Source: Patescibacteria group bacterium (GTDB lineage Bacteria; Patescibacteriota; UBA1384; XYA2-FULL-43-10). Taken from it: a stretch of DNA of 32,000 nucleotides. Below the pieces are notes generated by a model. That model searched no databases. It was not told the DNA's origin and saw only the letters and a program-made list of their open reading frames with translations. Of the stretch, positions 5,744 through 29,900 are shown in pieces (positions within the stretch are counted from its first letter, which is position 1; the number at the start of each line of letters is the position of its first letter). Made by a program: the position numbers and the translations under genes. The stretch spans positions 30,001 through 62,000 of the forward strand of contig JBAYVT010000004.1 in assembly GCA_041674405.1 (NCBI GenBank). Reading direction: 5' to 3'.

Positions 5744-6444
5744 TTATCCGTGCGCCACTACAACGCCGTACACTTTCTTCGCCCCGGCGGCCTTTAGAAC
5801 TTTCGCACATTCGTTTAAGGTTGTTCCGGTAGTCGCAACATCATCAATCAATAAAACGTTTTTTCCGTGCACAAATTCATCGTCTTCAACGCGAAAAACC
5901 CCTGTAAGATTAGAAAGCCTTTCGTTTCGCTTAAGGGTAGCTTGGGGTTTTTGATCTTTTATTCTTGATAGCGCATCACAGCCGGGAATTCCAAGCTTAT
6001 TTGAAACGTATTTTCCGATCAATTCTGACTGGTTGAATCCCCTTTCTGCCTTCCGTTTCAGCGAGAGTGGAACTGATACAATTACACAATTATCGGGTAT
6101 AGCTTCGAGCAATAATCGCTCTACCAACAATTCTCCGAGTATGCCGGCAAGGTCGACAAATCCTGAATATTTTAAGTGATGAATAATTTCCTTTGTCGGT
6201 CCCGCGTCATAAGTCGCAGCCGACATAATGCCATTTATCATAAAACCCAGGTTTTTTTGCAGTTGAGACAATACGAGCCAAATTTGATGATTTTACCGCA
6301 TTCCGGACAAGTCGATGTGGCGATTTTTTCGATTTTACTGGCACAACCAAAACACAAATGATTGCCATATTTGCCACAAGAAATACATTTTTTCGGATAA
6401 AATATGTCAATGATCGTATTTAGATATTGTCTGGTTAAACCCAT
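5744..6444 (-). pseudogene. comFC: ComF-family phosphoribosyltransferase (ComFC-like) split by a frameshift in an A7 run
   Basis: The N-terminal Cys-rich part (MGLTRQYLNTIIDIFYPKKCISCGKYGNHLCFGCASKI...CPECGKII..YCLNCKK) is in one frame and stops at 6238. The PRTase part (LLIDDVATTGTTL) is in another frame, 5744-6271. The two frames meet at tgcAAAAAAAcctgg (A-run 6253-6259). Confidence 0.75.
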
Positions 6445-6569: not shown

Positions 6570-6938
6570 ATGACAGAGGAGGACAAAAATGACTGGGCGG
6601 ATGGCGAAAGTGAAGGACAACTAGCAATAGATGTCTATCATGACGACCAAGCCGTATATATTTTGGCGCCAATAGCCGGTGTCAAGGCTTCTGATGTTGA
6701 CATTTCCATCACAGATGAGGTTGTTACCATACGCGGCGAACGAAGCCCCGGTCACGATACCGGAGACGAAAAACATTTTACAAAAGAGTGCTATTGGGGG
6801 CCATTTTCCCGATCTTATGTTATGCCTATTGCGGTCGCTTCCGAAAAAGCAAAGGCAATACTTAAAGACGGCCTTCTTAAAATTGTGATTCCAAAAGACG
6901 AAAAAGTTAAAACAAAAATAATAAAAGTTGAGGAATAG
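6570..6938 (+). CDS. Hsp20/alpha-crystallin small heat-shock protein
   Basis: AIDVYHDDQAVYILAPIAGVKASDVDISITDEVVTIRGER...LKDGLLKIVIPK is the alpha-crystallin domain pattern. An AAGGAGGG SD lies upstream. Confidence 0.85.
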   Translation: MTEEDKNDWADGESEGQLAIDVYHDDQAVYILAPIAGVKASDVDISITDEVVTIRGERSPGHDTGDEKHFTKECYWGPFSRSYVMPIAVASEKAKAILKDGLLKIVIPKDEKVKTKIIKVEE

Positions 6939-6976
6939 TTCACAATTAGTAGTTTGTAGTCCTTGGTTTGCTAATT

Positions 6977-7012
6977 AATTACCGCTTGGAGCTTGGCGGT
7001 AATTTGTGTTTT
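6977..7012 (+). terminator. Rho-independent terminator after hsp20
   Basis: AATTACCGC (6977-6985) pairs with GCGGTAATT (6996-7004), followed by TTGTGTTTT. Confidence 0.7.
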
Positions 7013-7077
7013 AATTAAGGTGTGATGGTTTTCCCTACTGACTACGGACTACCCCCTAATGACTAAAAGGAGTTTTT

Positions 7078-7953
7078 ATGAAAATTCGCAAAGCCGTTAT
7101 TCCGGCAGCAGGTTACGGAACAAGATTTTTGCCGGCAACCAAATCTATCCCAAAAGAAATGCTGCCGATTGTCGACAAACCAACCATTCAGTATGTGATC
7201 GAAGAGGCTGTTGAGTCAGGAATAGAAGATATCATTATCGTCACCGGTAGTACCAAGAGAGCAATCGAGGACCACTTCGACCACAGCCTGGAACTTGAAG
7301 GACAACTACAAAAAGCGGGAAAGATAGATCAATTAGAACAAATCCAAAAAATTGCCAGGATGGCGAATTTTATTTACGTGCGCCAGAAAGGGGCTTACGG
7401 TAATGGTACGCCTGTTCTTAACGCAGAGCACATCATAGGAAATGAGCCTTTTGCAGTTCTTTGGGGCGATGAGTTTATTGCTGGTAATCCTCCGCGATTG
7501 AAACAGTCGATAGAAGTATTTGACGAGTTTAAGAGGCCAGTTATTTCAGCTGTTCGAGTCGAAAAAAAGGAAGATCTGTCCCGTTATGGCATTGGCGATG
7601 TAACGCTGGTAAGAGACAATATCTTCGAAATTAACGAGATAGTCGAAAAGCCTGATCCGGACAAAGCGCCGTCAAATTTAGCCACGCATGGAGCCTACAT
7701 CCTAACTCCAGATATTTTTGATGCTTTAAAGAGTCAGAAACCTGGAAAAGGCGGTGAAATTTGGTTAGTAGATGGAATAAATGAACTTAAAAAGAAGGGT
7801 CCGATCTATGCCTGCGAAATTAAGGGCGGCAAATATTATGACTGCGGGAATATTACAGAATATCTAAAGACCAATGTCGAGCTTGCCTTGAAGCGCCCGG
7901 ATCTCCAGGAGGAATTTGGGGAATTTATAAAAGAAACTGCCTCGAAATTGTAA
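7078..7953 (+). CDS. galU: UTP-glucose-1-phosphate uridylyltransferase
   Basis: KAVIPAAGYGTRFLPATKSIPKEMLPIVDKPTIQYVIEEA is the canonical GalU N-terminus. Confidence 0.9.
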   Translation: MKIRKAVIPAAGYGTRFLPATKSIPKEMLPIVDKPTIQYVIEEAVESGIEDIIIVTGSTKRAIEDHFDHSLELEGQLQKAGKIDQLEQIQKIARMANFIYVRQKGAYGNGTPVLNAEHIIGNEPFAVLWGDEFIAGNPPRLKQSIEVFDEFKRPVISAVRVEKKEDLSRYGIGDVTLVRDNIFEINEIVEKPDPDKAPSNLATHGAYILTPDIFDALKSQKPGKGGEIWLVDGINELKKKGPIYACEIKGGKYYDCGNITEYLKTNVELALKRPDLQEEFGEFIKETASKL

Positions 7954-8034
7954 AAGTGGTTGTTTTGTACAAAATGTTGTATCATGTTATCAGATACATT
8001 GATAGATGTCCTTGTTTATAAAAGGTGAGGGGAT

Positions 8035-9414
8035 ATGGAAATTAAAGCTGGGTTTTTGAAAAAAATCAGTCTAGTTCTCTCGATTTTGCTTTTAGCCATT
8101 CTTACATCAGGGTGCTCCATAAGATCTACGGGCACAACAGAATCAAAAGTTATAACCATATGGGGCTTTGAAGATGAGGATACTTGGAAGCCAACAATAG
8201 ACGAACTATCCCAAGGAAGCCTAAACGGATACGAAATAAACTACGTCAAAAAAACTCTCGACGCCAACTATGAGAATGATTCTTTGAATTCAATTATGTC
8301 TGGCCAAGGGCCAGATGTTTGGGCCATGCCAGCAGATTGGGTTTATCGACACAAAGACAAGCTGGCACCCATGCCAGATGATATGTTGAAAGACATTGAC
8401 CTGGATAATAAATTCGTCCCAGCCATCAAACAATCTCTTGATTTTGACGGGAAGCTTTATGGGCTTTCGCCGGTTGTTAACACCTTAATGCTGTATATAA
8501 ACAAATCAGTTACCGCCCAAGTTCTTTCCGAATTTAATCAATCCGATGCCGCGACTAATGCCGAACAAGCCGATAAGGTAAATACTCTCCTAAACTCAAC
8601 TCCGCAGACCTGGACCGAATTTGCCGACTTTGCAAATCTTGTTACCAAGAAAAATGGCGACCAAATTGTAAGAAGCGGTGTTGCCCTGGGTACAAGCCAG
8701 AACGTCACGATCTCCGAAGACCCTCTGTATGCGATGATGCTCCAAAATGGCACAGCCATGACATCTAACGACTTGCAAACCGCTACGTTTAACTTGCCTT
8801 CTTCGGGAGGATCAGACATACCGGGAAAAAGAGCTCTAGACTTCCTTGCAAGTTTTTCCAAACCGGGTTCTGCCAACTATTCCTGGAATGGAAGCATGCC
8901 GAAAGACATCGAGGCATTTGCAACCGGCAAAACTGCGATGGTATTTGCGTATGAATCTTTTGCGAATTACATGGATCAAAATTACCCAAATGTTGAATAT
9001 TCACAGTCGGCCCTTCCTCAAATTGGCGGGGCAGATGAAAAGATTGTGGATTTTGCGCGATTTAACGCCTTGGTGGTACCAGGATTAACAAAGTTTCCAC
9101 AAGAGGCATGGGAAGTTGTTTCTGCTGTTTCTACCGAACATGCTACCGATTTTTCTAGTGCACTAAAAATTACGACTTCACAAAAAGACAATGCTATGAT
9201 CAAAGTCCTGAAAGACCGGGCGGGAAACTCTGACGTCGGCAGCTTTCAGGCCCAAACCGCTGTTACATGGAACAAGGGGAGGTACCCACTAAATATCGAT
9301 AGCATTTTTACAACAATGATCAACAATGTTTCGTCAAGCGGACAAGATACAAAAGCCGCTCTCGACACAGCAGCATCACAGGTTACGCAAATATTAAGAA
9401 AAACCACATGGTAA
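8035..9414 (+). CDS. Extracellular solute-binding lipoprotein (ABC-type, family-1-like), orphan
   Basis: The signal peptide has the lipobox LTSGC. Size is 459 aa, with sugar-SBP-like motifs (ITIWGFEDED, GPDVWAMPADWV). No permease or ATPase gene is adjacent. Confidence 0.6.
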   Translation: MEIKAGFLKKISLVLSILLLAILTSGCSIRSTGTTESKVITIWGFEDEDTWKPTIDELSQGSLNGYEINYVKKTLDANYENDSLNSIMSGQGPDVWAMPADWVYRHKDKLAPMPDDMLKDIDLDNKFVPAIKQSLDFDGKLYGLSPVVNTLMLYINKSVTAQVLSEFNQSDAATNAEQADKVNTLLNSTPQTWTEFADFANLVTKKNGDQIVRSGVALGTSQNVTISEDPLYAMMLQNGTAMTSNDLQTATFNLPSSGGSDIPGKRALDFLASFSKPGSANYSWNGSMPKDIEAFATGKTAMVFAYESFANYMDQNYPNVEYSQSALPQIGGADEKIVDFARFNALVVPGLTKFPQEAWEVVSAVSTEHATDFSSALKITTSQKDNAMIKVLKDRAGNSDVGSFQAQTAVTWNKGRYPLNIDSIFTTMINNVSSSGQDTKAALDTAASQVTQILRKTTW

Positions 9415-9767
9415 AAATCAAAAAAACAAAAAAAACTGCTTTAATTTTCGCCGCCACCACATTGATCTCTGTGCTGCCCGGGTTTGCCAGCGCATTTACC
9501 ACCGGAGTTGCAATAAATGGCAAAACAACTTTCTCCAGTTATATGGACTGGATGAAATCAATTTTTGGCTTTGCCATGAAACTTGGAGCGGTTTTAACTA
9601 CCCTAATGATACTCTATGCCGCAATCAAATATATCACCTCGCAAGGCAATTCTAGTGCTACCAATGAAGCAAAGGACATAATTATCGGCAGCCTGTCCGG
9701 CTTCGCCATGCTGCTTCTCATTTATTTAATTCTTAATGTTTTGGGGCTAAAAAGCTTTGCGTTTTAG
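9408..9767 (+). CDS. VirB2/TrbC-like (T4SS-pilin-like) small membrane protein 1
   Basis: A signal peptide (PGFASA/FT) is followed by a two-TM hairpin, LMILYAAIKYITSQGNSSATNEAKDIIIGSLSGFAMLLLIYLI. The start overlaps the SBP stop (ATGGTAA). Confidence 0.65.
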   Translation: MVKIKKTKKTALIFAATTLISVLPGFASAFTTGVAINGKTTFSSYMDWMKSIFGFAMKLGAVLTTLMILYAAIKYITSQGNSSATNEAKDIIIGSLSGFAMLLLIYLILNVLGLKSFAF

Positions 9768-9776
9768 TTAGTTAAA

Positions 9777-11975
9777 ATGAAAAGTTATAAATTCATAAAA
9801 TCCATTTCTCGATACCTCATAGTTTTTGCTGTTTTTGCAACCGCTACCTCCGCCATGGTTTTTGCTGTGCAAAATAACCAGGTGGGCGCGGACACAACAA
9901 CAGGTGTCAATTCCGCTGCCACTTCTGGAACAAGCAGCACGGGAGTCTCATCCGGAAAGGATTCCTCAGACGCTAAAAAAACTATTTCCGCTACCCCTAA
10001 CTACAAAGTTGTTAAGTCATCTTCCGGTACCTCCGCCAAGATGGTCTTGGTTTCGGTCACAAATGAAGAAATTACTGGAGCTGATTATACAAACTCCACC
10101 ACCAGCTATGGCATTACAAAATCCAAAGACAGCGCTACATGCGAAAACATACTTTCCCTTGATGAATATTGTTACATTTTGACCTACAACCAAGAGTGGA
10201 TCAAGCCTTCGGTCATTGATCCGATAAGCCCATCCTGGATATTTCTTGAAGAAATAAAGGGCCGCGCGACCACAGCAAGTGACTCATCTTCTCTCACCAT
10301 TATTAACAATGCCGAAGCCAGTTTTGCTTCGACTGCGCTCCAGAAATGGGACGGAGTAGATCTCTCGCAAATATCTCAGGGCGACGGGCAGATTATCATT
10401 CGATCAGAGGCTTTTTTCGATGCACTTGACGCAGATAAATTGACCTCAACCGGGTCTTATGTCACCTATTCGGCACCACAAGACAAGAAAACCTCCAGTG
10501 GAACAACTTCGAAACAGCTCATTGTGAAACTGGCACCAGCGTATCCGGATGCAAAAGCTGAATCGCTATGGATGGACGCAATTGATTTCACTTTGGGATC
10601 TGTAATTATCCCCTGGCAAGAAACCTTTCATGTGGATTTGTCGGACAAAAAATTAGCGCTTGAGAATCATCGAAAGGCATATGCAAACTATGCTGATGTG
10701 GCATCGTCAAAAACAGATGTGAACGGAACAGCCTTGAAAATTTCCGGCCCGCAAAAAATCATTATTGGCACCGATGGCTCGGCAAAAACAGACGGCGGTT
10801 TCAGTGTCACCATTGATCCTACCAAATTTACCAAACCCGAGAGAGGATACAAAACCCAGGTGTATATTAAGCCAACTGTCAAAAATGGGGATGCTGTTTT
10901 CACTTATTTACAATCTACCGATCCGGCCGCAACGTCATTTCCCTTTACTTGGTCTGCGATTGCCACAAATCCTTATGCCACCTCTATTCTCGCCGATGGT
11001 TCAGTAAAAACATATGACGATAGTGAGATCAAAGCTAATGGAATAATGTCTTACGAAAAAAATTATCCGCAGTCATACACCGTCACCGCCATCACATACA
11101 ATCAAGATGATTCGGAAAAAGAGAGAGTCGTTATGACTTTCGATACGATCGGCGATTCTTCATTTACCGAAGCACCGAAGGTTGGTTCGGGCAATATCAC
11201 AAATGGGCATATCTCGATTTCTGTCCCACAAAACACATTCACTAAAGCTGACAGGCAGCCAGTTCATTACACGATTCAGCTCGCAGATACAAACAATCCT
11301 AAAAAAATGAAAAAGATTGTTGTCTGGACATGCGGAGGAACAGCATCTGCAACAATAGCAGGGGATTCAAGCAACTGCGTCGGCACAGGAAATATCGAGC
11401 AAACAATCGCTGCATTTATAATGAGCGACATTCGCCCAGCCGACAAGCCAACCTGGAAAGAACTTGCATATGATGAAAACGGAGAGGCTACTCTTCAGGG
11501 CGATTGGGATATTTCGGGTACAAATGTCGGCACATTTTCCTTGATGGCCAAGGCACATAGTGCCAATTCGGATGATTCGGGCGGTATGGCTTCATATGTT
11601 CCCGGCAGCAAAGTTGCCGTCACCGTGAGCATAACCGATTCGAAACTCAATGATGGAGGTGGTTTAGATACTAAGTTTACCGACCTCCTCAAGCTCGGGA
11701 AAAAAGCATCATCAAATGCCAGAGGGTCTTCAATTACAGACTTAACAGGGGCAGCCACCAGGGTTGTAAATATAATTTTGTCTGCCCTCAGTGCGATTTG
11801 CGTGTTGGCAATAATAATCGGCGGAATACAATACATCTCATCAGGGGGAGATCCGGCCAAAGCTGAAAAGGGCAAAAAAACTGTTATCTATGCTGTTTAT
11901 GGAATCGTTTTAGCAATATTAGGATTTTTTATTGAATATGTGGTTATTGACTTAATTCACCAAATACTAAAATGA
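9777..11975 (+). CDS. Large Ser/Thr-rich surface protein with a C-terminal VirB2/TrbC-like pilin module
   Basis: It has an N-terminal signal/anchor, the low-complexity stretch TTTGVNSAATSGTSSTGVSSG, about 640 aa of unrecognised ectodomain, then ICVLAIIIGGIQYISSGGDPAKAEKGKKTVIYAVYGIVLAILGFF, which is paralogous to the three small neighbours. Confidence 0.6.
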   Translation: MKSYKFIKSISRYLIVFAVFATATSAMVFAVQNNQVGADTTTGVNSAATSGTSSTGVSSGKDSSDAKKTISATPNYKVVKSSSGTSAKMVLVSVTNEEITGADYTNSTTSYGITKSKDSATCENILSLDEYCYILTYNQEWIKPSVIDPISPSWIFLEEIKGRATTASDSSSLTIINNAEASFASTALQKWDGVDLSQISQGDGQIIIRSEAFFDALDADKLTSTGSYVTYSAPQDKKTSSGTTSKQLIVKLAPAYPDAKAESLWMDAIDFTLGSVIIPWQETFHVDLSDKKLALENHRKAYANYADVASSKTDVNGTALKISGPQKIIIGTDGSAKTDGGFSVTIDPTKFTKPERGYKTQVYIKPTVKNGDAVFTYLQSTDPAATSFPFTWSAIATNPYATSILADGSVKTYDDSEIKANGIMSYEKNYPQSYTVTAITYNQDDSEKERVVMTFDTIGDSSFTEAPKVGSGNITNGHISISVPQNTFTKADRQPVHYTIQLADTNNPKKMKKIVVWTCGGTASATIAGDSSNCVGTGNIEQTIAAFIMSDIRPADKPTWKELAYDENGEATLQGDWDISGTNVGTFSLMAKAHSANSDDSGGMASYVPGSKVAVTVSITDSKLNDGGGLDTKFTDLLKLGKKASSNARGSSITDLTGAATRVVNIILSALSAICVLAIIIGGIQYISSGGDPAKAEKGKKTVIYAVYGIVLAILGFFIEYVVIDLIHQILK

Positions 11976-12283
11976 TGCATAAAATTATTTCTATCGCTAT
12001 GGCTGCGGATGACCTTAAGCTGCCGGAGAAATCTGGTGGCACAGAGGCTGATCTTGGCACTGTTCTTGGCTTTCTTGAAAAAATTATTTCTATTGCCATG
12101 GATATCGCCATAATCCTCGGTGTTATTATGATTTTTGTTTCCGCCTTTATATATGCAAGCTCTTTCGGCGAAGAATCCAAGGCAGAAACTGCCAAAAAGA
12201 CTCTTTTGTGGGCAGTTATCGGAACAGGCGTAGCATTCTTGGCAAAGATTATTGTTGACAACCTTGATCTGCTTTTGGGTTAG
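11972..12283 (+). CDS. VirB2/TrbC-like (T4SS-pilin-like) small membrane protein 2
   Basis: IMIFVSAFIYASSFGEESKAETAKKTLLWAVIGTGVAFLA is the same two-TM module. It has an ATGA overlap with the upstream gene. The segment KIISIAM occurs twice. Confidence 0.6.
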   Translation: MMHKIISIAMAADDLKLPEKSGGTEADLGTVLGFLEKIISIAMDIAIILGVIMIFVSAFIYASSFGEESKAETAKKTLLWAVIGTGVAFLAKIIVDNLDLLLG

Positions 12284-12300
12284 CGCATCAATAATGTTAT

Positions 12301-12329
12301 TTGACAAGCAAAAAATATGTGCTTAAAAT
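12301..12329 (+). promoter_or_regulatory. Sigma70-type promoter TTGACA-N17-TAAAAT for the last pilin-like gene
   Basis: TTGACA at 12301-12306 and TAAAAT at 12324-12329. A GGAGGG SD precedes the ATG at 12367. Confidence 0.6.
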
Positions 12330-12366
12330 TGTTCTTAGTGGACTTAAATAATAAGACGGAGGGCGA

Positions 12367-12684
12367 ATGAATTTAGTAGAAAAGGCGTACGCGGTTAGCA
12401 AAAACCAGTGGACTGGTTTGCTAAACCCAACAGCCACCACTTCGGGAAACTGGCAAGATATTGTTAATAACGTTATTAACATTGTCTTGATGGTAGCTGG
12501 TGCATTAGCGGTTATTTATCTAATCTATTCTGGCATTCTCTACATTACTGCGGCAGGTAATCCGGATTCAGCCAAAAAGGGTCAGCAAGGCATTATCAAT
12601 GCTGTGATCGGTATTGTGATCATCGTTGCCGCATTCTTCATCGTCAGAGCAGCAATGGGTCTTGCTGGGCAAGCTACAAAATAA
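12367..12684 (+). CDS. VirB2/TrbC-like (T4SS-pilin-like) small membrane protein 3, with its own promoter
   Basis: ALAVIYLIYSGILYITAAGNPDSAKKGQQGIINAVIGIVIIVAAFFIV is the cleanest copy of the shared module. Confidence 0.65.
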   Translation: MNLVEKAYAVSKNQWTGLLNPTATTSGNWQDIVNNVINIVLMVAGALAVIYLIYSGILYITAAGNPDSAKKGQQGIINAVIGIVIIVAAFFIVRAAMGLAGQATK

Positions 12685-12694
12685 GATCAATTGG

Positions 12695-14359
12695 TTAATC
12701 TTTCGTTACGCGCCAGACTTCTTCTGCAGTCGTAACGCCCGATAAAACTTTTGAAAGTCCGTCCTGTTCCATGGTAATCATGCCTGAAGACAGGGCGGCT
12801 TTTGTAAATTCCGAGAGTCCGGCTTTTTCGAATAATAGTTTATCGATTGACTCGTTTGGAACAAGCACTTCAATAATTACTTGCCGGCCAGAAAACCCGA
12901 CATTTCTACATTTTCCACATCCTTTTCCGCGTTTTAGCTTGGGAGCGGCACTTGATAACAAATTTTGGGATGCAGGATCCAATAATTTTTGAATAGGCAA
13001 CAAAGAGTCTTGAATTTCTTTCCAGACTTCAGGGCTGGGAGTATATTCCTCGGCACAAGCCGGGCATATTCTGCGCACGAGCCGCTGAGCCATAACCAAG
13101 TTTATTGATCCTGACAAGAGGAATGGTTTTACGCCAATATCAAGCAATCGGACAAAAACTCCGGGTGCAGAGTTGGCGTGAATAGTAGAGAGCAGCAAAT
13201 GGCCCGTCATGGCAGCCTGTATCGCAATTTCCGCCGTTTCGGTGTCTCTTACCTCCCCTACCATTAAAATGTCAGGATCTTGGCGCAGAGAGGCTCTAAG
13301 ACCCAAGGCGAAGGTATATCCCTCCTCTTTTTCAACCTGGCTCTGCTCCACACCGGGAATGTGATACTCGACAGGATCCTCAAGAGTGATTATTTTTACA
13401 TTTGACTTATTGAGCTCATGTAAAATTGCATAAAGCGTAGAGGATTTACCTGAACCGGTCGGTCCAGAAGTTAGAATCATCCCATGCGGCTTCGAAATTG
13501 CTGCCTCGATTACAGATAGCGCATCGGGCCTTATGCCCAAGTTCTTTAGGCTCAAGATTGACCCAGTTTGGCGGAGCAATCGGATTACAACGCTCTCTCC
13601 GTCAGCTGAAGGTAAGGTAGACACTCTTAAATCGATTGGCTCCTCTCCAAACTTGAAAGAAAACCTGCCGTCCTGCGGTTCGATGGCATTATCCATTTTT
13701 AGTTTCGATAAAAATTTTATTCTGGATAAAAGTGACTTATACTGGGACATCGGAAGAGACACGACGTTTTGCAAAACCCCGTCAATTCTGTATCGAATAA
13801 TGAATTCTTTTTCTGTCGGCTCAAGGTGGATATCTGATGCATTTGTTTTTGCTGCTCCGGTCATAATTACCTCGAGGAGATGGGTAGTTGATACGCTTCT
13901 GGCGACACTGGCAGCTGATTCTAAATCTTTAATCTCTTCCGTAAAGTTTTGCCCGGATTCTTTCGTTTCTTCGGCTTTCTTTTTTTCCTCTTTTTCTTTG
14001 TTTTCATAAGCCAGAATGCCGTAAAACAGGCTTGCTTTCGAAATTAATGATTTCACAAATTTCAATTTCGATGTTCTCTCAAGCTCGGCTAGATAAGATG
14101 CCATGGCATCATCCGAAGGGTTGGCTGTGCCAATTTTTACCGTAGACCCGATCTTTAAGTAAGGAATAATTTGAAACCTCAAGGCGATTTCCTTTGAAAT
14201 CAAATTTAAAATCTCCGGCGCAATCGGATAATTTGAGAGATTTATATATGGCAAATTCAGCTTTTTTGCCAATTCTTGGGTATGTCTCTCCTCCTGCTCG
14301 CGGTTGAGGTAAAAAATTGTCTTATTAAGATCAGGCAAGTTCCCTCCGGTCAAAAACAA
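12695..14359 (-). CDS. PilB/GspE-family secretion/pilus assembly ATPase
   Basis: It has an N-terminal T2SSE_N-like domain, Walker A GPTGSGKSST, the Asp/His box region, and a tetracysteine CPAC...CGKC motif. The start (TTG at 14359) is uncertain. Confidence 0.88.
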   Translation of the reverse strand: MFLTGGNLPDLNKTIFYLNREQEERHTQELAKKLNLPYINLSNYPIAPEILNLISKEIALRFQIIPYLKIGSTVKIGTANPSDDAMASYLAELERTSKLKFVKSLISKASLFYGILAYENKEKEEKKKAEETKESGQNFTEEIKDLESAASVARSVSTTHLLEVIMTGAAKTNASDIHLEPTEKEFIIRYRIDGVLQNVVSLPMSQYKSLLSRIKFLSKLKMDNAIEPQDGRFSFKFGEEPIDLRVSTLPSADGESVVIRLLRQTGSILSLKNLGIRPDALSVIEAAISKPHGMILTSGPTGSGKSSTLYAILHELNKSNVKIITLEDPVEYHIPGVEQSQVEKEEGYTFALGLRASLRQDPDILMVGEVRDTETAEIAIQAAMTGHLLLSTIHANSAPGVFVRLLDIGVKPFLLSGSINLVMAQRLVRRICPACAEEYTPSPEVWKEIQDSLLPIQKLLDPASQNLLSSAAPKLKRGKGCGKCRNVGFSGRQVIIEVLVPNESIDKLLFEKAGLSEFTKAALSSGMITMEQDGLSKVLSGVTTAEEVWRVTKD

Positions 14360-14464
14360 AAGTCAAAAATATGCAAATTTAGTTCAATTATAGAACACCC
14401 GGACAAATAATACCAATGGACAATTTCGGGCAAAGATGATAATGTTTGAGTCTGAAGACCTTAC

Positions 14465-14554
14465 GGTGAGGTGCTAGAGTGGTTGAATAGGCCGGTCTCG
14501 AAAACCGGTATGCCCGCAAGGGTATCGTGGGTTCAAATCCCACCCTCACCGCCA
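14465..14554 (+). tRNA. tRNA-Ser (anticodon CGA)
   Basis: GGTGAGG..CCGGT-CTCGAAA-ACCGG..long variable arm..GTGGG-TTCAAAT-CCCAC-CCTCACC-G-CCA. Confidence 0.92.
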
Positions 14555-14646
14555 TCCCACGTTGCCCGATTTATCGGGCTATGCGGGATGAAGAACAGAA
14601 TTTGAACGGGAAGGGGTCGGGAAACGGGAGTTTCCCGCTTCGGAAA
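14555..14646 (+). repeat. tRNA-Ser-trailing conserved element, copy 2
   Basis: tcCCACGTtGCCCGATTtaTCGGGCTATGCGG...ATTtgAACGGGAAGGgGTCGGGAAA (block 2 at 14600-24), then the hairpin GGGAAAC-GGGA-GTTTCCC. It parallels 2620-2727 on the minus strand. Confidence 0.7.
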
Positions 14647-14726: not shown

Positions 14727-14751
14727 TTTGACGAGTTTATATCTCCAACTG

Positions 14752-14784
14752 AAAAAGCCGGCGCAAACTTCACGCCGACTTTTT
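14752..14784 (-). terminator. Hairpin terminator downstream of the GC-rich methyltransferase gene
   Basis: AAAAAGCCGGCG (14752-63) pairs with CGCCGACTTTTT (14773-84) with one mismatch. A/T runs on both sides make it potentially bidirectional. Confidence 0.65.
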
Positions 14785-14797
14785 AGTTCCTCACCTC

Positions 14798-15517
14798 CTA
14801 TTTCACCGCGCAGATTATGTCGTAGTTGGGCTCTGCCGCAAGGTTTGGTCTCAAGACTCTCTTCACCCCTAGCCCCCGAACAAGCCCTTCCATTTCGTTT
14901 GGCGCAAGCAAATACGAAAGTGAGCGGTTCTGGAACTGCTGCCCGCGAACGATACCCTTCCCCTCTATCACCCGCGTTCGCCGAAACCAATCGTGGGTGA
15001 TGTCAACCGCCATGCTGTAGCCGAGGAAGGAAAGGTTCAGGTGACCACCACCCTGATCAATCTCGTGCTGTGAGATCGTGTCGAGGTAGAGAAGTCCGCC
15101 GCTTTTTAAGGCAGCGAGCATTTCTTTTAGGCTTCTTCCGATCTCCATGCGACACCGACCAGGATCGAAGATATCGCCCTTCCCCCAGCCCCCCACGTTT
15201 GTTAAGCTGTTACCTCTGCATATCACAGCGTCGAAAGTCCTGGCCAGCTCGCGAGCCTTCCGCCAATCCAGTTTGCGAAACTCAATCGCCGGATGGCTGT
15301 GGCGAGCAGTGGCGATGTCGATCATCTCTTCGTCCGCATCGATCCCGACCCCTGTAAAGCCGCGCTCTGCTAAACCGTGCAGCACATGCCCACCGCCGCA
15401 TCCACACTCGATGATTGTTCTGACGCCGAGTTCCCGCAGTAAATCCGCTAGTTCTTTGATGAACTCCGAGCCATACATCAGCTCGGACAAGATTACCCAC
15501 TGCTGTGACAGAGTCAC
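14798..15517 (-). CDS. Class I SAM-dependent methyltransferase, glycine/sarcosine-N-methyltransferase-like (GC-rich)
   Basis: Motif I is IIECGCGGGHVLHGLAERGF. FDAVICRGNSLTNV and LKSGGLLYLD resemble the remembered GNMT-type post-I/III motifs. The GTG start overlaps the upstream stop (GTGA). Confidence 0.75.
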   Translation of the reverse strand: MTLSQQWVILSELMYGSEFIKELADLLRELGVRTIIECGCGGGHVLHGLAERGFTGVGIDADEEMIDIATARHSHPAIEFRKLDWRKARELARTFDAVICRGNSLTNVGGWGKGDIFDPGRCRMEIGRSLKEMLAALKSGGLLYLDTISQHEIDQGGGHLNLSFLGYSMAVDITHDWFRRTRVIEGKGIVRGQQFQNRSLSYLLAPNEMEGLVRGLGVKRVLRPNLAAEPNYDIICAVK

Positions 15518-16158
15518 GTGCCTTCAACCTCCTTCATCATGATCACTCGCAGGCCTCCTGTTGCTGCGTCCTCCGGAATAAAATCCGGAGCTATCCAGAG
15601 AAACTTACCCCCAAGCCGGTAGTAGAAGGCCAAGAGCGGGTCGAGGCAAAGTTCGCGATCAGTAGGAAAGGGCCCTCCCGCGAGATGTCGATCTATCGCC
15701 TCCTTGAACGCGGGCCTTTGTCTAATCCCTTCTCTTGGGCTTCCATTGTAGGAGGCCGGCCTCCCGTCAGCTATTCCAAGGATGCAACCATCCGACTTAA
15801 TTCGACCAAGCATAGCTTGCGCCAGTAATACTGCTGTGCGGGCATTGCGATACTTATCCTGCACGTTGAGGTTGTAGACGAAGGCACAATCATGGCTGGT
15901 CTCCATCGGCATCGTCGAGAACTCCCCAAAGTTTCTGGAAAATGCTTTGGGATCACTCGGATAAAACCGGGAGTAGGAAAAGCAGATTTTCCCAACCAGC
16001 TCCCCGTCCAGTCTGGCCCCAAGCATGATGTGTCCAAGGCGCAGCCGCTGCTCGATCAGCTCACGGCTGGCGCGCAGATAGGGCGGGAACGACAGGTTCT
16101 CGTCTTCGAGGATTTCGTCCAAATCCTCGAAAGACAACTCGACTATCATCGTGTCCAT
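15514..16158 (-). CDS. GNAT-fold acyltransferase-like protein (GC-rich), start revised
   Basis: The track ORF runs to 16299, but its first 47 codons lie in the AT-rich spacer. The ATG at 16158 (MDTMIVELSFEDL) is preceded by AAAGGAGG. The central VYNLNVQDKYRNARTAVLLAQAM resembles a GNAT beta4-alpha3 region. The family assignment is tentative. Confidence 0.5.
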   Translation of the reverse strand: MDTMIVELSFEDLDEILEDENLSFPPYLRASRELIEQRLRLGHIMLGARLDGELVGKICFSYSRFYPSDPKAFSRNFGEFSTMPMETSHDCAFVYNLNVQDKYRNARTAVLLAQAMLGRIKSDGCILGIADGRPASYNGSPREGIRQRPAFKEAIDRHLAGGPFPTDRELCLDPLLAFYYRLGGKFLWIAPDFIPEDAATGGLRVIMMKEVEGT

Positions 16159-16193
16159 AATGTCTCGCCTCCTTTGGATTCTTCGAAACAAAA

Positions 16194-16223
16194 AATTATC
16201 CCTCCGTCTTGGCAGGATGTCAA
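16194..16223 (-). promoter_or_regulatory. Sigma70-type promoter TTGACA-N18-ATAATT for the GC-rich two-gene operon
   Basis: On the minus strand, TTGACA is the complement of 16218-16223 and ATAATT is the complement of 16194-16199. The promoter lies in the divergent spacer shared with the TrmB-like regulator gene. Confidence 0.55.
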
Positions 16224-16308
16224 TAATTTGCACAGGGATTTTGTTAGTGATATCCTTTAATCGAGATTGTTTTATTAAAATGTTGTCAAAGTTTTTCACA
16301 AATAAGTT

Positions 16309-19851: not shown

Positions 19852-19879
19852 GAGCCGATTTTAGCACAAATATGAGCTT

Positions 19880-19924
19880 AATACGAATAAACACAGAGAC
19901 AGCCACCTCGATGCGAGATGGCTG
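19880..19924 (-). terminator. Hairpin terminator downstream of the GC-rich secreted-protein gene
   Basis: CAGCCACCTCG (19900-10) pairs with CGAGATGGCTG (19914-24) in an 11-bp stem with one mismatch. A T-rich tract follows on the minus strand. Confidence 0.5.
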
Positions 19925-19953
19925 CCCTGAAAGTCCCTCCAGGTTGTTGGTCG

Positions 19954-20466
19954 CTAGAAGCGGCCGATGTTGTACTGGGCGCAGACGCTGTCGTCCTGCC
20001 CATCCACGCAGAGCCGGTATAGCCCTGATGCGCGGCCGGACTTCCAACAGAACTGGATGGTCTGGTAGGGCTTGCACCCCGCCTGGTATTTCACATACCC
20101 CATCGCATCCAGGCCCCTCACGATCTTGACCGGCGGCGTCGTAACGTCCGCCCGCCACGGGTCGTATCCCCACACACGAAGACACGAATTCCAGGGGTTG
20201 ACCTCGGCGCCGAGCCTCAGCCGCTCATTGTCCGTCCTGGCAAGCCAGAGGACATCGGCCGGCTTGTACCCTGCCATCAGCAGAGTGTAGGGCCCGTCCA
20301 CCTGCTGTTCGGCGTAGAACCACGCCGAACCGCGAGCAACGGTCACGGTTGCAGCCGTGTACTCGCCTTGGACGAACACACCCGGAGACACCGACACCTC
20401 GTCCGCGAAAGCGACCGAGACGGACAAAGCCAACATTGCGATCAGAACAGCGGTAATAGCGCGCAT
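19954..20466 (-). CDS. Secreted Cys/Trp-rich hypothetical protein (GC-rich)
   Basis: The signal peptide is MRAITAVLIAMLALSVSVAFA/DE. The mature protein is about 149 aa with 5 Cys. An AGGAGG SD lies 6 nt before the ATG. No family was recognised. Confidence 0.65.
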   Translation of the reverse strand: MRAITAVLIAMLALSVSVAFADEVSVSPGVFVQGEYTAATVTVARGSAWFYAEQQVDGPYTLLMAGYKPADVLWLARTDNERLRLGAEVNPWNSCLRVWGYDPWRADVTTPPVKIVRGLDAMGYVKYQAGCKPYQTIQFCWKSGRASGLYRLCVDGQDDSVCAQYNIGRF

Positions 20467-20512
20467 GTTTGCGCCTCCTGTACCCGAAATTGTACGCCTG
20501 ATACCGACAATT

Positions 20513-20541
20513 CAATATATACTATTTCTCATCAATTGTCA
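20513..20541 (-). promoter_or_regulatory. Sigma70-type promoter TTGACA-N17-TATATT for the GC-rich secreted-protein gene
   Basis: On the minus strand, TTGACA is the complement of 20536-20541 and TATATT is the complement of 20513-20518, with an exact 17-nt spacer. Confidence 0.6.
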
Positions 20542-20553
20542 ATCTTCTCGAGC

Positions 20554-20580
20554 ACAAAAAAAGAACCCGTGGGGCTCCCA
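20554..20580 (-). terminator. Rho-independent terminator after rpmH
   Basis: The minus-strand RNA GAGCCC-CAC-GGGTTC includes a G-U pair that only works on this strand, followed by TTTTTTT. Confidence 0.6.
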
Positions 20581-20646
20581 AATACATGATTAAATGGTTA
20601 TATTATTATTCTCAACAATTTAGCAATACAGCAATTTAGCAATTTA

Positions 20647-25889: not shown

Positions 25890-25972
25890 GGAGCGTTCGA
25901 TAATAATCCTTAGGGCGCACAGCTGCGATTAGCGCAGGCGTCCAAGGTACTGATTGTCAGGAGGTGGCAGAC

Positions 25973-26893
25973 ATGCGTCTGTCCACGATAATTGGGTTAG
26001 CTATGATGTTGGTGTCGGGGGCGTTCGCGGGAGAGATCGCAGTCTGCCCGCAGCCTACCCCTCAGAGACTGGCGATCGCGCCGGTCTCTGCCTCGTCCCT
26101 TGGCCAGTTCGAGTGGTGGGTGGACGAAGAGGAGGCGGCCGGCCTGGTCGAGGAGCGAGCCTATGAGGTCGCTCCCTGCATTCTGGCCGCCTACAACATG
26201 GAGCTGGTAGAGCGGAAGATGCTCGGGATCGCAGAGGCCGAGCAGGCCTTGGCAGAGGATCCGTACATGGACCCCACTACCTTCGAGCAGCCTGGCCAGG
26301 GCGTCGGCGCCAACTGGCTCCTGGTGGTTACGGTCACCAGGATGAGCGTGGAGGATAAGTCCGTGGACGTTGAGATCCGCGGCAACTCCTATCACGCTGA
26401 GAAGTCCATGATAACGGTCTGGCTGCAGGCGCGGATCGTCAATGTGGGGACGAAAGTCGTGTCACCCGCGCTATCGATTCGCAAGAACTGCACGATCACG
26501 ACTGACCAGCAGCTCAGCCTGCAGAGCGGCGAGTGGGATCTGGGCGGTGATCAGCGGACGGACATCGTGACCGATGCCGTCTATAAGATCACCGACTCTG
26601 GTCTTGCCGAGCTCTTGGGGCAGCTGCTGCCCAAGCTTGGCATCAGGACTGGGGCGCAAGCCGGATTCCGGTACGACCCGCAGACGGGCGAACGCATTTC
26701 GGTGATTGAGCAGACATACATCTGCCCGAACCCGAGATGCAACCGGATCTCGCCGAAAGGAGCGAACTTTTGCCCCTACTGCGGCGCCAGGTTGGACCGG
26801 CCCTGCGAACCCGCACCGGCAATCGAAAGGGCGCGGCCCTGTGAGCCGCCACCAGCCGCTAACCGCGACAAGGTGAACCACGCCGGCGGATAG
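25973..26893 (+). CDS. Secreted CsgG/LpoB-like-fold protein with a C-terminal zinc ribbon and Pro-rich tail (GC-rich), start revised
   Basis: The ATG at 25973 lies 8 nt after CAGGAGG; the track used a GTG at 25964. The signal peptide is MRLSTIIGLAMMLVSGAFA. MELVERKMLGIAEAEQAL...GANWLLVVTVTRMSVEDK...ITVWLQARIVNVGT parallels the CsgG-family pattern. The zinc ribbon is CPNPRCNRISPKGANFCPYCGARL. Confidence 0.55.
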   Translation: MRLSTIIGLAMMLVSGAFAGEIAVCPQPTPQRLAIAPVSASSLGQFEWWVDEEEAAGLVEERAYEVAPCILAAYNMELVERKMLGIAEAEQALAEDPYMDPTTFEQPGQGVGANWLLVVTVTRMSVEDKSVDVEIRGNSYHAEKSMITVWLQARIVNVGTKVVSPALSIRKNCTITTDQQLSLQSGEWDLGGDQRTDIVTDAVYKITDSGLAELLGQLLPKLGIRTGAQAGFRYDPQTGERISVIEQTYICPNPRCNRISPKGANFCPYCGARLDRPCEPAPAIERARPCEPPPAANRDKVNHAGG

Positions 26894-26975: not shown

Positions 26976-29900
26976 TTAAAATCCGACATGTGTATACGCG
27001 GTAGTCTGTGGATTTGCCCACATGCCAGCCTTGGTGCCGTTACACAAGCCGTTTGTTTGCCCGCCGCCAGTGACATTTTTACATATGGTATCTGATGTAA
27101 GTGCTGACCAAGCATTTACATCTTCCCAACGGCCGGTCATGACCTGGGTTGGGACGAGCTTTTGATCATCTGTACTTGATGGCATGTCGTATAAGTTTTG
27201 GATGAATTTATTGGCCTTGTATTGTGCAGCCTCAATTATCTTTCTCTCTCTGGTTTTACTGTCTATACCATTCCATACCCCGAGATTTCCGTTGTCCACT
27301 ATATCGGGTGATGGTGGTGATTCGATGCTAGGATAATAACCATCAGCTGTACACAAGTATTCAACTTTGTAAACACCAAAGAGGTTATTGTAAAGGATAA
27401 TTGCCACATCAATTGCTGCTTGTATCCAGTTGCCATACAGAAAGCTGATAGTGGCATCCAGAAGAAGCGATAAGGTGCCAGGAGCAAGTCCGAGCTGCTC
27501 GTCCCATTTTGCCAATGTGTCGCCCAGAACAAGCCTTGCCGCATAAGAGATTGCCGCAGCCTTGGCATTTGCAAGATTGGCACCAGAAGCCCCGCTTCCG
27601 CCGGACGCAGCAAATGCCTGCTCTGCCTGTTTAAAGTTCTGGTACAAATTATAAAGATTTTGGCTTGTGCCTGGCGGCAGACCAAATGTCTTGTCAACAA
27701 ATCCGCCAACAAAGTTTAGGGCAAACGATGGGCCCCCATAAATGTCTGCTAGAGATTGAAGCTTATTTCCAGCTATTGATAGTGCCCCTTCTAAGCTTCC
27801 AGTCTGAAGAAATCCAAGAATACCACCGAATGTGCCTTGGCCGAAATCGACCCCAAAAATCGAGGCTGCCTTACCTGTAATGTAATTATCTATTGTGTTA
27901 ACGAGAGTTCCGTCGGCAGTGGCTGATCCCAAAAGGCCATTCAAAGCGCTCTTAAAGTCAAAGCTGTTCGGATCAGAAATAAAATTTTGTAGTGTTCCCA
28001 AGAATCCGCCCGGAAGAAAATCTATTCCGAGGTCATTCCGGATTAAGCCCTCGGCATATTCAAGTAGGGTAGTTGTCCGCGTCCAATCATTCCCCTGAAA
28101 CATGCTGCGGGCAAAATCGGCAGGAATATTCGGATCCAGCCTGTGCAAGGCTAAATCAATTGATTTATACTCCACTCCCTGGCTCCAAATATTTGTAGCA
28201 AAGTCGATTGCTGCTTGCCCAGCGTTTAAGACATCAAGCGCTCGAGTATTGCCAATTCGAACATTTAGAAGGCTGTCAATTGCCGCCCCTGTATCAATCC
28301 CAGCAGTAATGCGCAATCCATTGTCAACTTGAAGATTTAGAATCGGCGCACTTGAAGTATCCGATGCACCCGGGAAATTAAGGCCAATGTTAATAATCCC
28401 GTTTGGAGGCCCAAGGTTAGATGATGTAGTAGAATCGGACAATATCCCGGTTGAAACGTTGAAGGTGGCGTTACCGGCGGCGATCGTCCAGTTGTAACTA
28501 GAATTAGTCAGCTGGTTCCATCTTTGTTGCTCTGCTGCCAGGCGAACGGCAATTTCCTGTGTTAAATCTCCATATACCAATCGCGTTAGATCGCTAAAAT
28601 TAAACTTGAATGAATTTAGGGCATTTATTGCGTTGTCGTATGTTTCAAATATTCCCAAATTGAAGGGCAATCCGTCTTTGCCGGAATACATTTGGGGGAT
28701 ATTCATGACTGCACCTAGGAGCTGAATCGGCCTAAAATCCCCATAGAGAATTTGCTGGAAAGTTGAAGAGTCAAACCCGTCCATGTTTAGGAGATTTTTG
28801 AGAGAATATTCCAGGTTGCCGGCAATATCTTTGATCGTGAAATTAACTTGCAAATCTTTAAAAGCGTCCCCGACAAGTGTGTTTAACTGTCCCCCGATCG
28901 TGGACTTGAGGCAAGATTCCGTATCTCCACTGCCGCCAAATATCGAGAGCCCGCATCTTATGTCCGGATTGCCCAAGATCAATGTCTTGAATACTGAAGT
29001 CAATCCTAAACTGCTGTCAAATGCCTCGGCACCAAAGGATATTAATCTGTTAAAAGTTGTCTGAGGGTCTTGCAGAATTGTGGCCATGGTGCCTTCCGGC
29101 AAACCGGCTTTTTTATCCAGATTCCAAGAGAAAATATTGTTTAATGTACCATAAAGATCACCCATGTTATCGCCGGGATCTTTGATCCAGGTGATGAGAT
29201 TGTTTATGTCGCCATCTGTTATTTGCCTGTCGCTGCCGTCTTGTAGCCCGAGTCCTTTTATCAAACCCGAAATCAAATTGTTCTGAGTTGCGGCATCAGT
29301 AACCTGGCGTACGTATTGGTTTATCGGGAAAATCTCACCCAGGCTTCCCGCGGTTGGCGAGGCAAGAAGCTTGACTGTTGTGCCATCCGGCAGCCCGAGA
29401 TTGCGATCCAGAAAAGATAATCTGCCAACGAAGTTGTTCCACGAAGGTTCGTTCTGGCTAAATAAGGTGGCAATTGTATCCGAATTAAATCCACCGGTGC
29501 TTCCTTTTGAGACCAGGGAATCAATTGTCTTTTGTAATGCATCATTCACTCCGGTCCAGTTAGTGCCTAAGGCCTGGTAATAAGTTACAACGGAGTTTAG
29601 TTTTTGATAAAAGCTGTTTCCTGCATTCACATTAAAGAAATTTTCACCCATAGACTTTAATTCTGCATTTACAACACTGATCTCTTCTTGGCTTACCGGA
29701 ATTTGGAACGCTTCGGCAAATTTAACAACCCCGACATTCTTTGCAACACCCAAAATATTTCCGCTTTTTAGCGACCCAGCCGGTAATCCGAGCAGTGACT
29801 CTGCTTTATTTGACCCAACACTGCTACCGGTGAACAAAGAAGCCAAGTCAAGGTTGCCTGTGCCAATAGAGTTACCGATAAGATTAGTTGATATTTGAGT

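Follow-up and report, generated by a model that had tools for sequence, protein, structure and literature searches.

What does a lipoprotein of the sugar-binding kind do at the head of a row of pilin genes, in a genome that holds no transporter for it to serve? The question is raised by a stretch of 32,000 nucleotides (nt) from a Patescibacteria genome (contig C4, 30001-62000; this whole stretch is called the window, and positions are those of the window unless prefixed with a contig), in which a gene for a solute-binding protein (SBP) leads directly into four consecutive genes, 9408-12684, whose products all end in the same two-helix module. The answer that we favour, with a rough probability of 0.7, is that the four genes encode VirB2-like subunits of the Patescibacteria type IV secretion system (T4SS) and that the SBP is a glycan-recognising accessory to them. 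The parts of this answer are not equally firm: the sequences make it highly probable that the four genes encode T4SS subunits of a known kind, whereas functional cooperation of the SBP with the four pilins, for which the genomic context speaks, is somewhat better than an even bet and any specific role proposed for it less secure than that. VirB2-like arrays are already known; a conserved orphan SBP as their lead gene appears to be undescribed.

The genome comprises 929 kb in 7 contigs, is 98.7% complete and has a guanine-cytosine (GC) content of ~42%. With yidC, dnaA, dnaN and recF all inside it, the window is part of the chromosome and includes the replication origin. Every open reading frame (ORF) of the first-pass annotation of this DNA was found at the coordinates listed for it. 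Three sets of loci were used for comparison, the first of which, for the order to which the genome belongs, consists of 20 kb extracted around each of 40 SBP orthologues, with counts limited to loci where the contig continues. A distant set was obtained by searching one-genome-per-species contigs with a profile of 33 SBPs (A1), which gave 408 related stretches; the best 80 of the 408 were examined, a set that reaches down to 27% identity and includes Doudnabacteria and other lineages. The third set is a phylum sample, an even draw of 401 genomes from which 40 SBP loci of ~36 families were extracted and 39 scored for the presence of an array.

Four VirB2-like subunits in tandem

It had been claimed from the letters of the DNA that four consecutive genes end in a two-transmembrane 'T4SS pilin' module, and this is borne out, with all four products passing the gathering score of 26.6 bits of PF18895 (T4SS_pilin) and just missing the TrbC/VirB2 profile PF04956 (25.5, 24.0, 17.0 and 10.2 bits, cut-off 27.9 bits). 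Because the PF04956 scores are related but sub-threshold, the genes are filed under PF18895 and not under TrbC. All four are read from the plus strand. Type 1 (9408-9767, 119 amino acids (aa), 30.9 bits) has a signal peptide and the two-transmembrane VirB2-like module, and shows three hydrophobic segments. Type 2 (9777-11975, 732 aa) is far longer, and is made up of a signal peptide, a Ser/Thr-rich linker, an ectodomain and a C-terminal VirB2-like module (residues 657-715, 40.3 bits). Type 3 (11972-12283, 103 aa, 37.6 bits) is a two-transmembrane module, and type 4 (12367-12684, 105 aa), with the best score of the four at 46.0 bits, is the most conserved subunit and the candidate major one. 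A search on the DNA of all 929 kb found just these four PF18895 modules in the genome.

By hydropathy each module has two hydrophobic helices and a short, Lys-rich charged loop, and the loop motif reported earlier agrees with the consensus over 144 modules, Y.TS.GDP.KAe.AKk. Signal peptides are present at the N-termini of pilins 1 and 2, and pilins 3 and 4 start with a hydrophilic stretch of ~30 aa. When the four N-termini were read directly none carried the type IV prepilin leader G/FxxxE, again as had been stated.

Modules of this kind were surveyed by Quinonero-Coronel et al. (2025, PMC12102498), who screened 3,035 genomes of Patescibacteria for PF18895 and PF04956 and reported VirB2-like proteins in 1,948 VirB4-bearing assemblies, together with 441 'VirB2 arrays' of 2-11 genes with ~25% mutual identity. 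The row in the window is a VirB2 array by their definition, having four tandem genes, 21-34% mutual identity and a VirB4 gene in the genome. A six-gene array and the T4SS core have been shown to be essential in Ca. Southlakia epibionticum (Wang et al. 2023, PMC10633639), and T4SS pilins are among the highest-expressed unknown genes in Patescibacteria metatranscriptomes. What had been proposed as an 'uncharacterised surface filament' is instead an array that belongs to a published T4SS (PMC12102498, PMC10633639).

Published arrays lie close to dnaA and, by analogy with Bartonella and Anaplasma, have been suggested to provide antigenic or host-range variation (PMC12102498), which would make the four pilins a repertoire of interchangeable major subunits. 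The identity of 21-34% between the paralogues, like the average of 25% in that survey, would fit such a repertoire, as would the fast evolution of the type 2 ectodomain and an array length of anything between 3 and 16 genes in the phylum sample (3-5 in the order). However, each position in the array has an orthologue of its own. The best match of pilin 1 elsewhere in the order is the first array gene in 31/32 other loci, that of pilin 2 the long fusion gene in 24/32 and that of pilin 4 the last array gene in 27/32 (median identity 56%), and pilin 3 finds either a middle gene (19 loci) or the second module of a ~780-aa two-module fusion in one family (13 loci). Such positional orthologues are 38-56% identical (medians) compared with 21-34% between paralogues in this genome, which is to say that they are closer across genera than paralogues are within a genome. 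Furthermore the architectures differ, with a signal peptide or none and an ectodomain or none, and the fusion of types 2 and 3 in one family is sensible for cooperating parts but not for alternatives. A repertoire of variants is therefore an improbable explanation. To judge from their sequences the four pilins are fixed, anciently diverged subunit types and not interchangeable variants, and given their distinct architectures, their positional orthology and the occasional fusion of types 2 and 3 they would be parts that work together.

The type 2 ectodomain of ~500-600 aa is taken to be fast-evolving since its identity within the family is 25-27%, against 47-51% for the SBP. No homologue of residues 30-650 was found at E<=1e-5 among the 8000 scored candidates, those with most shared words, of a 5.8-billion-protein collection, a search that was probably swamped by Ser/Thr-rich words. 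An AlphaFold2 model built from nine orthologues is poor (predicted local distance difference test (pLDDT) 55, predicted template-modelling score (pTM) 0.37), and at this low confidence suggests a Ser/Thr-rich linker that is disordered, a region rich in mixed alpha/beta structure and a helical hairpin.

Related arrays vary in their make-up. Several members of the same family as this genome possess a second PF18895 array at another locus, which consists of two genes encoding ~110-120 aa and ~425-440 aa (G001:C16:9809-10334, G006:C1:15244-15766, G007:C53:10538-11057 and G004:C3:2279-2809) and is lacking here. In one family of the order (L024, L026-L028, L032, L034, L037, L041, L043 and L045) the second array gene, of ~600-800 aa, carries two PF18895 modules, of which the second is the counterpart of the separate pilin 3, types 2 and 3 being naturally fused there. 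The longest array, L170 (G272:C4), has 16 consecutive PF18895-type genes after the SBP, including one for a 427-aa protein with four modules.

The secretion core across oriC

The core genes of the T4SS are found on the same contig, 14.3 kb from the end of the array and with oriC in between, as a cluster that is all on the minus strand (C4:56976-77329) and extends 15 kb beyond the window end. Its last gene, for a 2429-aa surface protein, reaches into the window with its 3' part (26976-32000, minus strand), the ORF continuing past the window. VirB4 (619 aa; C4:67704-69563, minus strand, 5.7 kb past the window end) was first flagged by weak AAA_10 matches, of which one other is FtsK, and was then confirmed by the NCBIfam model NF045971 for CD1110-family VirB4-like conjugal ATPases (358.5 bits, cut-off 325); PF03135 (CagE_TrbE_VirB) matched no VirB4 in the genome. 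Also in the cluster are a P-loop_TraG match, PrgI/VirB3 (PF12666, 38.9 bits, cut-off 27), a TrsD-like protein of 369 aa with a VirB4 N-domain, which matches NF041427 weakly (34 bits, cut-off 200), two peptidases, one a C39-like cysteine peptidase and the other of the M15 kind (Peptidase_C39_2 and Peptidase_M15_4), a TolB-like propeller, and proteins of 496, 904 and 630 aa. The 904-aa protein is polytopic and a candidate VirB6-like protein, and its homologues in related loci take the same place, with the array on one side and PrgI on the other. A search of the genome with PF02534 found no VirD4, and no relaxase was seen near the locus. The VirB4, PrgI/VirB3 and TrsD-like neighbours identify this, at the level of sequence similarity, as a T4SS of the MPF-FATA type with a VirB4 of the CD1110 family. 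According to a 2025 review, the T4SSs of Patescibacteria are the only monoderm ones with VirB2-like pilins (PMC12857230).

The first-pass annotation held that no gene for VirB4, VirD4, VirB6 or a prepilin peptidase was present. That stands for 8035-14359 but not for the contig, on which VirB4 and the candidate VirB6-like protein are 14 kb off, and its premise that the array has no T4SS motor is overturned by VirB4 on the same contig and by other lineages, in which the core directly follows the array.

Three GC-rich stretches (14728-16308, 19852-20646 and 25964-26893; 0.51-0.61 against a background of 0.42) lie within the origin region between the array and the core.

An orphan solute-binding lipoprotein as lead gene

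The lead gene of the array (8035-9414, plus strand) encodes a MalE-like (CUT1-type) solute-binding lipoprotein of 459 aa, which matches PF01547 SBP_bac_1 at 40.9 bits (cut-off 26) and begins with a signal peptide and the lipobox LTSG/C, of which G26 and C27 do not vary across 33 orthologues. The orthologue is single-copy in 41/44 genomes of the order, at 37-51% identity. An AlphaFold2 model made from A1 (pLDDT 90.7, pTM 0.86) has the two-lobe type II fold, and every one of its top Foldseek hits among PDB structures is an SBP that binds oligosaccharides (E ~1e-20, template-modelling scores 0.6-0.79, 15-21% identity). Their ligands are manno-oligosaccharides (CpMnBP1), beta-1,2-gluco-oligosaccharides, cyclodextrins and maltodextrins, and cello-oligosaccharides (CbpB). 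The same kinship with oligosaccharide binders emerges from a profile search of PDB sequences. WGFEDED.W and GPDVWAMPNDWVYRH, the blocks best conserved in the family, are canonical N-lobe blocks and would line the cleft.

It had been noted that this SBP lacks an ABC (ATP-binding cassette) partner. This can be extended from the locus to the whole of the 98.7%-complete genome, in which a profile search found no MalFG-type permease (BPD_transp_1, PF00528; controls 14/14). Across the phylum sample the SBP family is present in 319/401 genomes and BPD_transp_1 in 63/401, so that at least 256 of the sampled genomes have the SBP but no MalFG-type permease. The protein is in this sense an orphan, an SBP by its predicted fold that does not classify as a working component of an ABC importer.

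The transcription unit and the durability of the SBP-pilin junction

Both gene overlaps that had been described are present in the sequence, with the stop of the SBP gene overlapping the start of pilin 1 by 7 nt (ATGGTAA, 9408-9414) and the stop of pilin 2 overlapping the start of pilin 3 (ATGA, 11972-11975). So is the strong promoter-like site claimed for the fourth gene, which is a consensus match (12301-12329, plus strand; TTGACA-17-TAAAAT, 11/12) and scores highest of all sigma-70-like matches in 6900-14600; it is followed, 6 nt 5' of the pilin 4 ATG, by a GGAGG ribosome-binding site. Upstream of the SBP is galU (UTP-glucose-1-phosphate uridylyltransferase; 7078-7953, plus strand; TIGR01099 336.5 bits, cut-off 326.8), and as the 81-bp gap between the two holds neither a promoter-like nor a terminator-like site galU is probably the first gene of the transcription unit. 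No glycan-synthesis gene besides galU is found in the block here. Further upstream are a gene for an Hsp20 small heat-shock protein (6570-6938, plus strand; PF00011 57 bits), 3' of which there is a terminator-like hairpin (6977-7004), and one for a ComF-family phosphoribosyltransferase (5744-6271, minus strand; TIGR00201 comF E 1e-29, below the cut-off, and Pribosyltran).

Wherever the contig continues, loci of the order have the same block: ComF on the opposite strand, then Hsp20, GalU, the SBP and 3-5 pilin genes, and a PilB gene that converges on them. The SBP adjoins a pilin gene in 35/35 such loci of the order and in 40/42 of the distant set, where 3 more loci end within 86 bp of the SBP. 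In the same two sets galU is directly 5' of the SBP in 35/35 and 39/41 loci, and in the order Hsp20 is upstream in 32/32 loci and ComF in 25/27. Because these housekeeping flanks are likewise conserved there, synteny at the level of the order is insufficient to demonstrate coupling, and it was dropped as a proof in favour of a comparison of how each adjacency decays across the phylum. In 34/39 loci of the phylum sample the SBP stop is followed on the same strand, at a distance of no more than 400 bp, by the start of a PF18895-like array, galU is directly 5' in 25/36, and Hsp20 and ComF are upstream in 4/33 and 2/33; by matching criteria the four adjacencies thus persist in ~87%, 69%, 12% and 6% of loci. 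The junction of SBP and pilin, which is an overlap or a gap of at most 30 bp in 21/35 order, 24/40 distant and 24/34 phylum loci, is the most durable adjacency of the block, as selection for co-expression predicts. Had the adjacency been confined to this genome the coupling proposed at first would have been refuted; the gene-neighbourhood census decisively shows the opposite, with conservation across most of the phylum.

In some lineages the array is not parted from the core. It runs directly into genes for the VirB6-like protein, PrgI and TrsD (and VirB4, contig permitting) in 6/29 loci of the phylum sample and in ten loci over the distant and phylum sets (L100, L120, L122, L127, L139, L142, L150, L153, L158 and L161), and in those ten the T4SS locus physically begins with the SBP gene.

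Hsp20 (SEML1_0020), ComF and a tRNA-Ser gene (14465-14554 in the window) flank the array both here and in the distant Saccharibacterium Southlakia (SEML1_0019-0022), where the orientation of the array relative to Hsp20 is the opposite of that seen here, which points to an old origin-proximal neighbourhood that was rearranged by inversion.

The convergent PilB/GspE-family ATPase

The array is faced by a gene for a short PilB/GspE-family ATPase (12695-14359, minus strand; 554 aa), which has a T2SSE domain (412 bits) and an MshEN N-domain. It does not reach the GspE/PilB equivalog level, scoring 477 bits with TIGR02533 (cut-off 630) and 470 bits with TIGR02538 (cut-off 676), and it is the third, PilC-less paralogue in a genome whose two complete type IV pilus clusters lie on other contigs, C6 (PilB-PilC) and C5 (PilB-PilT-PilC-PilD). 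There is no PilC, PilM or PilD at the array locus. The array-adjacent PilBs of the order and of neighbouring lineages (505-570 aa) form a clade with 99/99 support that excludes the two ~840-aa paralogues of the genome.

Such a neighbour invites the explanation that the four pilin-like proteins form a self-standing filament or adhesion module, independent of the T4SS and possibly powered by PilB, with the SBP as its tip or receptor. All loci of the order, and several lineages neighbouring it, do have a PilB that converges on the array, and it keeps this place throughout this class. Its distinct orthologous clade lacks an adjoining PilC, and VirB11, the traffic ATPase of diderm T4SSs, is another member of its ATPase superfamily (weak NCBIfam matches). 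However, in the phylum sample PilB is within 10 kb downstream in just 2/29 loci, the subunits are without a prepilin leader, and a monoderm T4SS core is on the same contig here and directly follows the array elsewhere, in loci from which PilB is absent. Being on the opposite strand, the window PilB is not co-transcribed with the array, and on strand, distribution and phylogeny together a role as the array motor was rejected as the main explanation of it. We know of no PilB that acts on VirB2-type subunits. A filament independent of the T4SS is thus very improbable, and what had been said of this gene holds for its family and its strand but not for the suggestion that it is the motor, which it probably is not: it is a distinct orthologue that is a neighbour of the pilins by descent.

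A model for the array and the case against it

The proposal that we consider best supported is that 9408-12684 encode four VirB2-like (PF18895) membrane or pilus subunits of a chromosomal MPF-FATA-like T4SS in a Berkelbacteria-type Patescibacterium. As in VirB2 systems, the subunits would enter the membrane such that both termini face outward and the Lys-rich loop inward, and a platform of VirB4, VirB3 and VirB6 would extract them and build a pilus or a conduit; these steps of topology and polymerisation follow the biology of Agrobacterium VirB2 and F TraA. Type 4, the best conserved of the four and the one with a promoter-like site of its own, would serve as the major subunit, and type 2 would be a minor, adhesin-bearing one, whose ectodomain would be on the outward-facing N-terminus and for that reason decorate the structure. 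The SBP would work beside the pilins at the cell surface as a glycan-recognising accessory, its likeliest role being to recognise either a host cell-wall or surface glycan or a glycan of the cell's own envelope at the site of assembly or engagement of the T4SS or pilus. It may also be a tip or receptor component, as had been suggested at first.

A number of observations weigh against this proposal. The case for contact of the SBP with the pilins or the T4SS is indirect, the promoter and operon structure are predictions from sequence, and the 904-aa protein, for which no Pfam or NCBIfam match was found, is VirB6-like by position and topology only. Pilus building is still unproven for any Patescibacteria T4SS (2025 review, PMC12857230). 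PF18895 is present in 393/401 sampled genomes, including families wholly without the SBP (f18 13/13, f25 10/10 and f26 12/12), and the essential Southlakia array has no SBP. Because SBP-less families and Southlakia have pilins all the same, the SBP can be an accessory of many of these systems but not of all. Furthermore no array follows the SBP in 5/39 phylum loci, each of these genomes keeping one SBP and having its arrays elsewhere, and in three of them, the distant lineages L154, L172 and L174, the single SBP homologue has a glycosyltransferase on one side and on the other an O-antigen-ligase-like polytopic protein of at least 8 transmembrane segments. Lastly, galU is almost as tightly linked to the SBP as the pilins are, which fits a role in the envelope glycan too. 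In L174 the start of the O-antigen-ligase-like gene overlaps the end of the SBP gene, which hints that the SBP family is linked to surface-glycan assembly.

Several of these observations would be expected if the SBP were an envelope-glycan factor that acts with GalU, binding or chaperoning a surface glycan or glycolipid derived from UDP-glucose, and if the pilin neighbourhood were an old co-expressed 'envelope' string whose products do not cooperate physically. Actinobacteria offer a comparison in principle, with orphan SBP-like lipoproteins that guide the synthesis of glycolipids. The gene directly 5' of the SBP in 25/36 phylum loci, and in nearly all of the closer ones, is a true GalU by TIGR01099; taken together with the glycosyltransferase and ligase context of three loci this link keeps the explanation alive, and the lineages that carry pilins without the SBP add to it. 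It would nevertheless seem unlikely, since the SBP-pilin junction outlasts the GalU-SBP junction (87% against 69%) and often overlaps, which suggests translational coupling, ten loci continue into the T4SS core, and the glycan-synthesis genes of the block in this genome amount to galU.

A stronger version of the accessory role that we propose is that the SBP is a true working part of the T4SS and confers glycan specificity on it, either by marking host polysaccharide at the site of engagement or by feeding host oligosaccharides to a channel formed by the T4SS or VirB6. This is possible, though we would not bet on it. Were it true, the hand-over of oligosaccharides to the T4SS would be an SBP-dependent and ABC-independent form of uptake, in line with the speculation on nutrient import in PMC11665869, a 2024 perspective in which effector delivery or the uptake of nutrients and nucleotides is mentioned.

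Significance

The T4SS is essential for epibiotic life in the sole Patescibacterium to have been tested genetically, and its function has been called 'completely unknown' (PMC11665869). A ligand-binding protein that is tied to the pilin operon in ~80% of sampled genomes and has no transporter to serve offers a way in, as its ligand would be the first biochemical clue to what the T4SS recognises or moves, and ligands can be screened without cultivation. A fixed set of subunits argues for a hetero-oligomeric structure over the antigenic-variation model that has been proposed so far. There is also a trap for annotation, in that these SBPs should not count as evidence of sugar import when the metabolism of Patescibacteria is reconstructed.

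A link between an SBP and the T4SS finds no mention in PMC12102498, PMC10633639, their supplements, PMC12857230 or the results of full-text literature searches, whose scope was text other than figures and closed-access papers. New here are the phylum counts (SBP 319, permease 63 and pilin 393, each out of 401), the adjacency-decay control, the ten core-continuous loci, the split of array and core around oriC in the order, the short-PilB clade and the glycosyltransferase and ligase context of the exceptions.

Comparison with known systems

The resemblance to type IV pilus systems is confined to the PilB/GspE-family ATPase beside the array; unlike in those systems the pilins have no G/FxxxE leader, the ATPase is convergent and limited to a class, and PilC, PilM and PilD are not at the locus. 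The SBP for its part shares with CUT1 SBPs (MalE and the oligosaccharide SBPs of PDB entries 4r9g, 5ysb, 2zyo and 7x0l) the SBP_bac_1 match, the lipoprotein anchor that is usual for monoderm SBPs, the two-lobe type II fold and the canonical N-lobe blocks, which are its most conserved parts. It differs in being 15-21% identical to any solved SBP, and in sharing its operon with T4SS pilins and not with transporter genes, in a genome without a MalFG-type permease.

Closer to the pilins are Agrobacterium VirB2, RP4 TrbC and F TraA, which are likewise small, have two hydrophobic helices and a short basic loop, and work in systems with a VirB4-family ATPase; PF04956 matches of up to 25.5 bits, below threshold, reflect this. 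However, the TrbC cut-off is not reached, the host here is one of the monoderms, in whose T4SSs a pilin is normally absent, and there are four fixed types in place of one major pilin plus VirB5, two of them without a recognisable leader; the pilus here is putative.

The closest counterparts are found within the phylum. With the VirB2 arrays of Patescibacteria (PMC12102498; Southlakia SEML1_0014-0019, PMC10633639) the locus shares tandem PF18895 modules, low identity between paralogues and a chromosomal position near dnaA, and with the MPF-FATA-type T4SSs of the phylum it shares VirB4, TrsD-like, PrgI/VirB3 and candidate VirB6-like proteins, peptidoglycan hydrolases and the absence of a VirD4 detectable by PF02534. 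The order of the core genes parallels that of SEML1_0004-0013 in Southlakia, which also follow dnaA-dnaN-recF. Unlike Southlakia and the published arrays, however, the array in the window has one member with a large ectodomain and a short PilB that converges on it, and in contrast to Southlakia it is split from the core by 14 kb containing oriC and is headed by galU and the orphan SBP.

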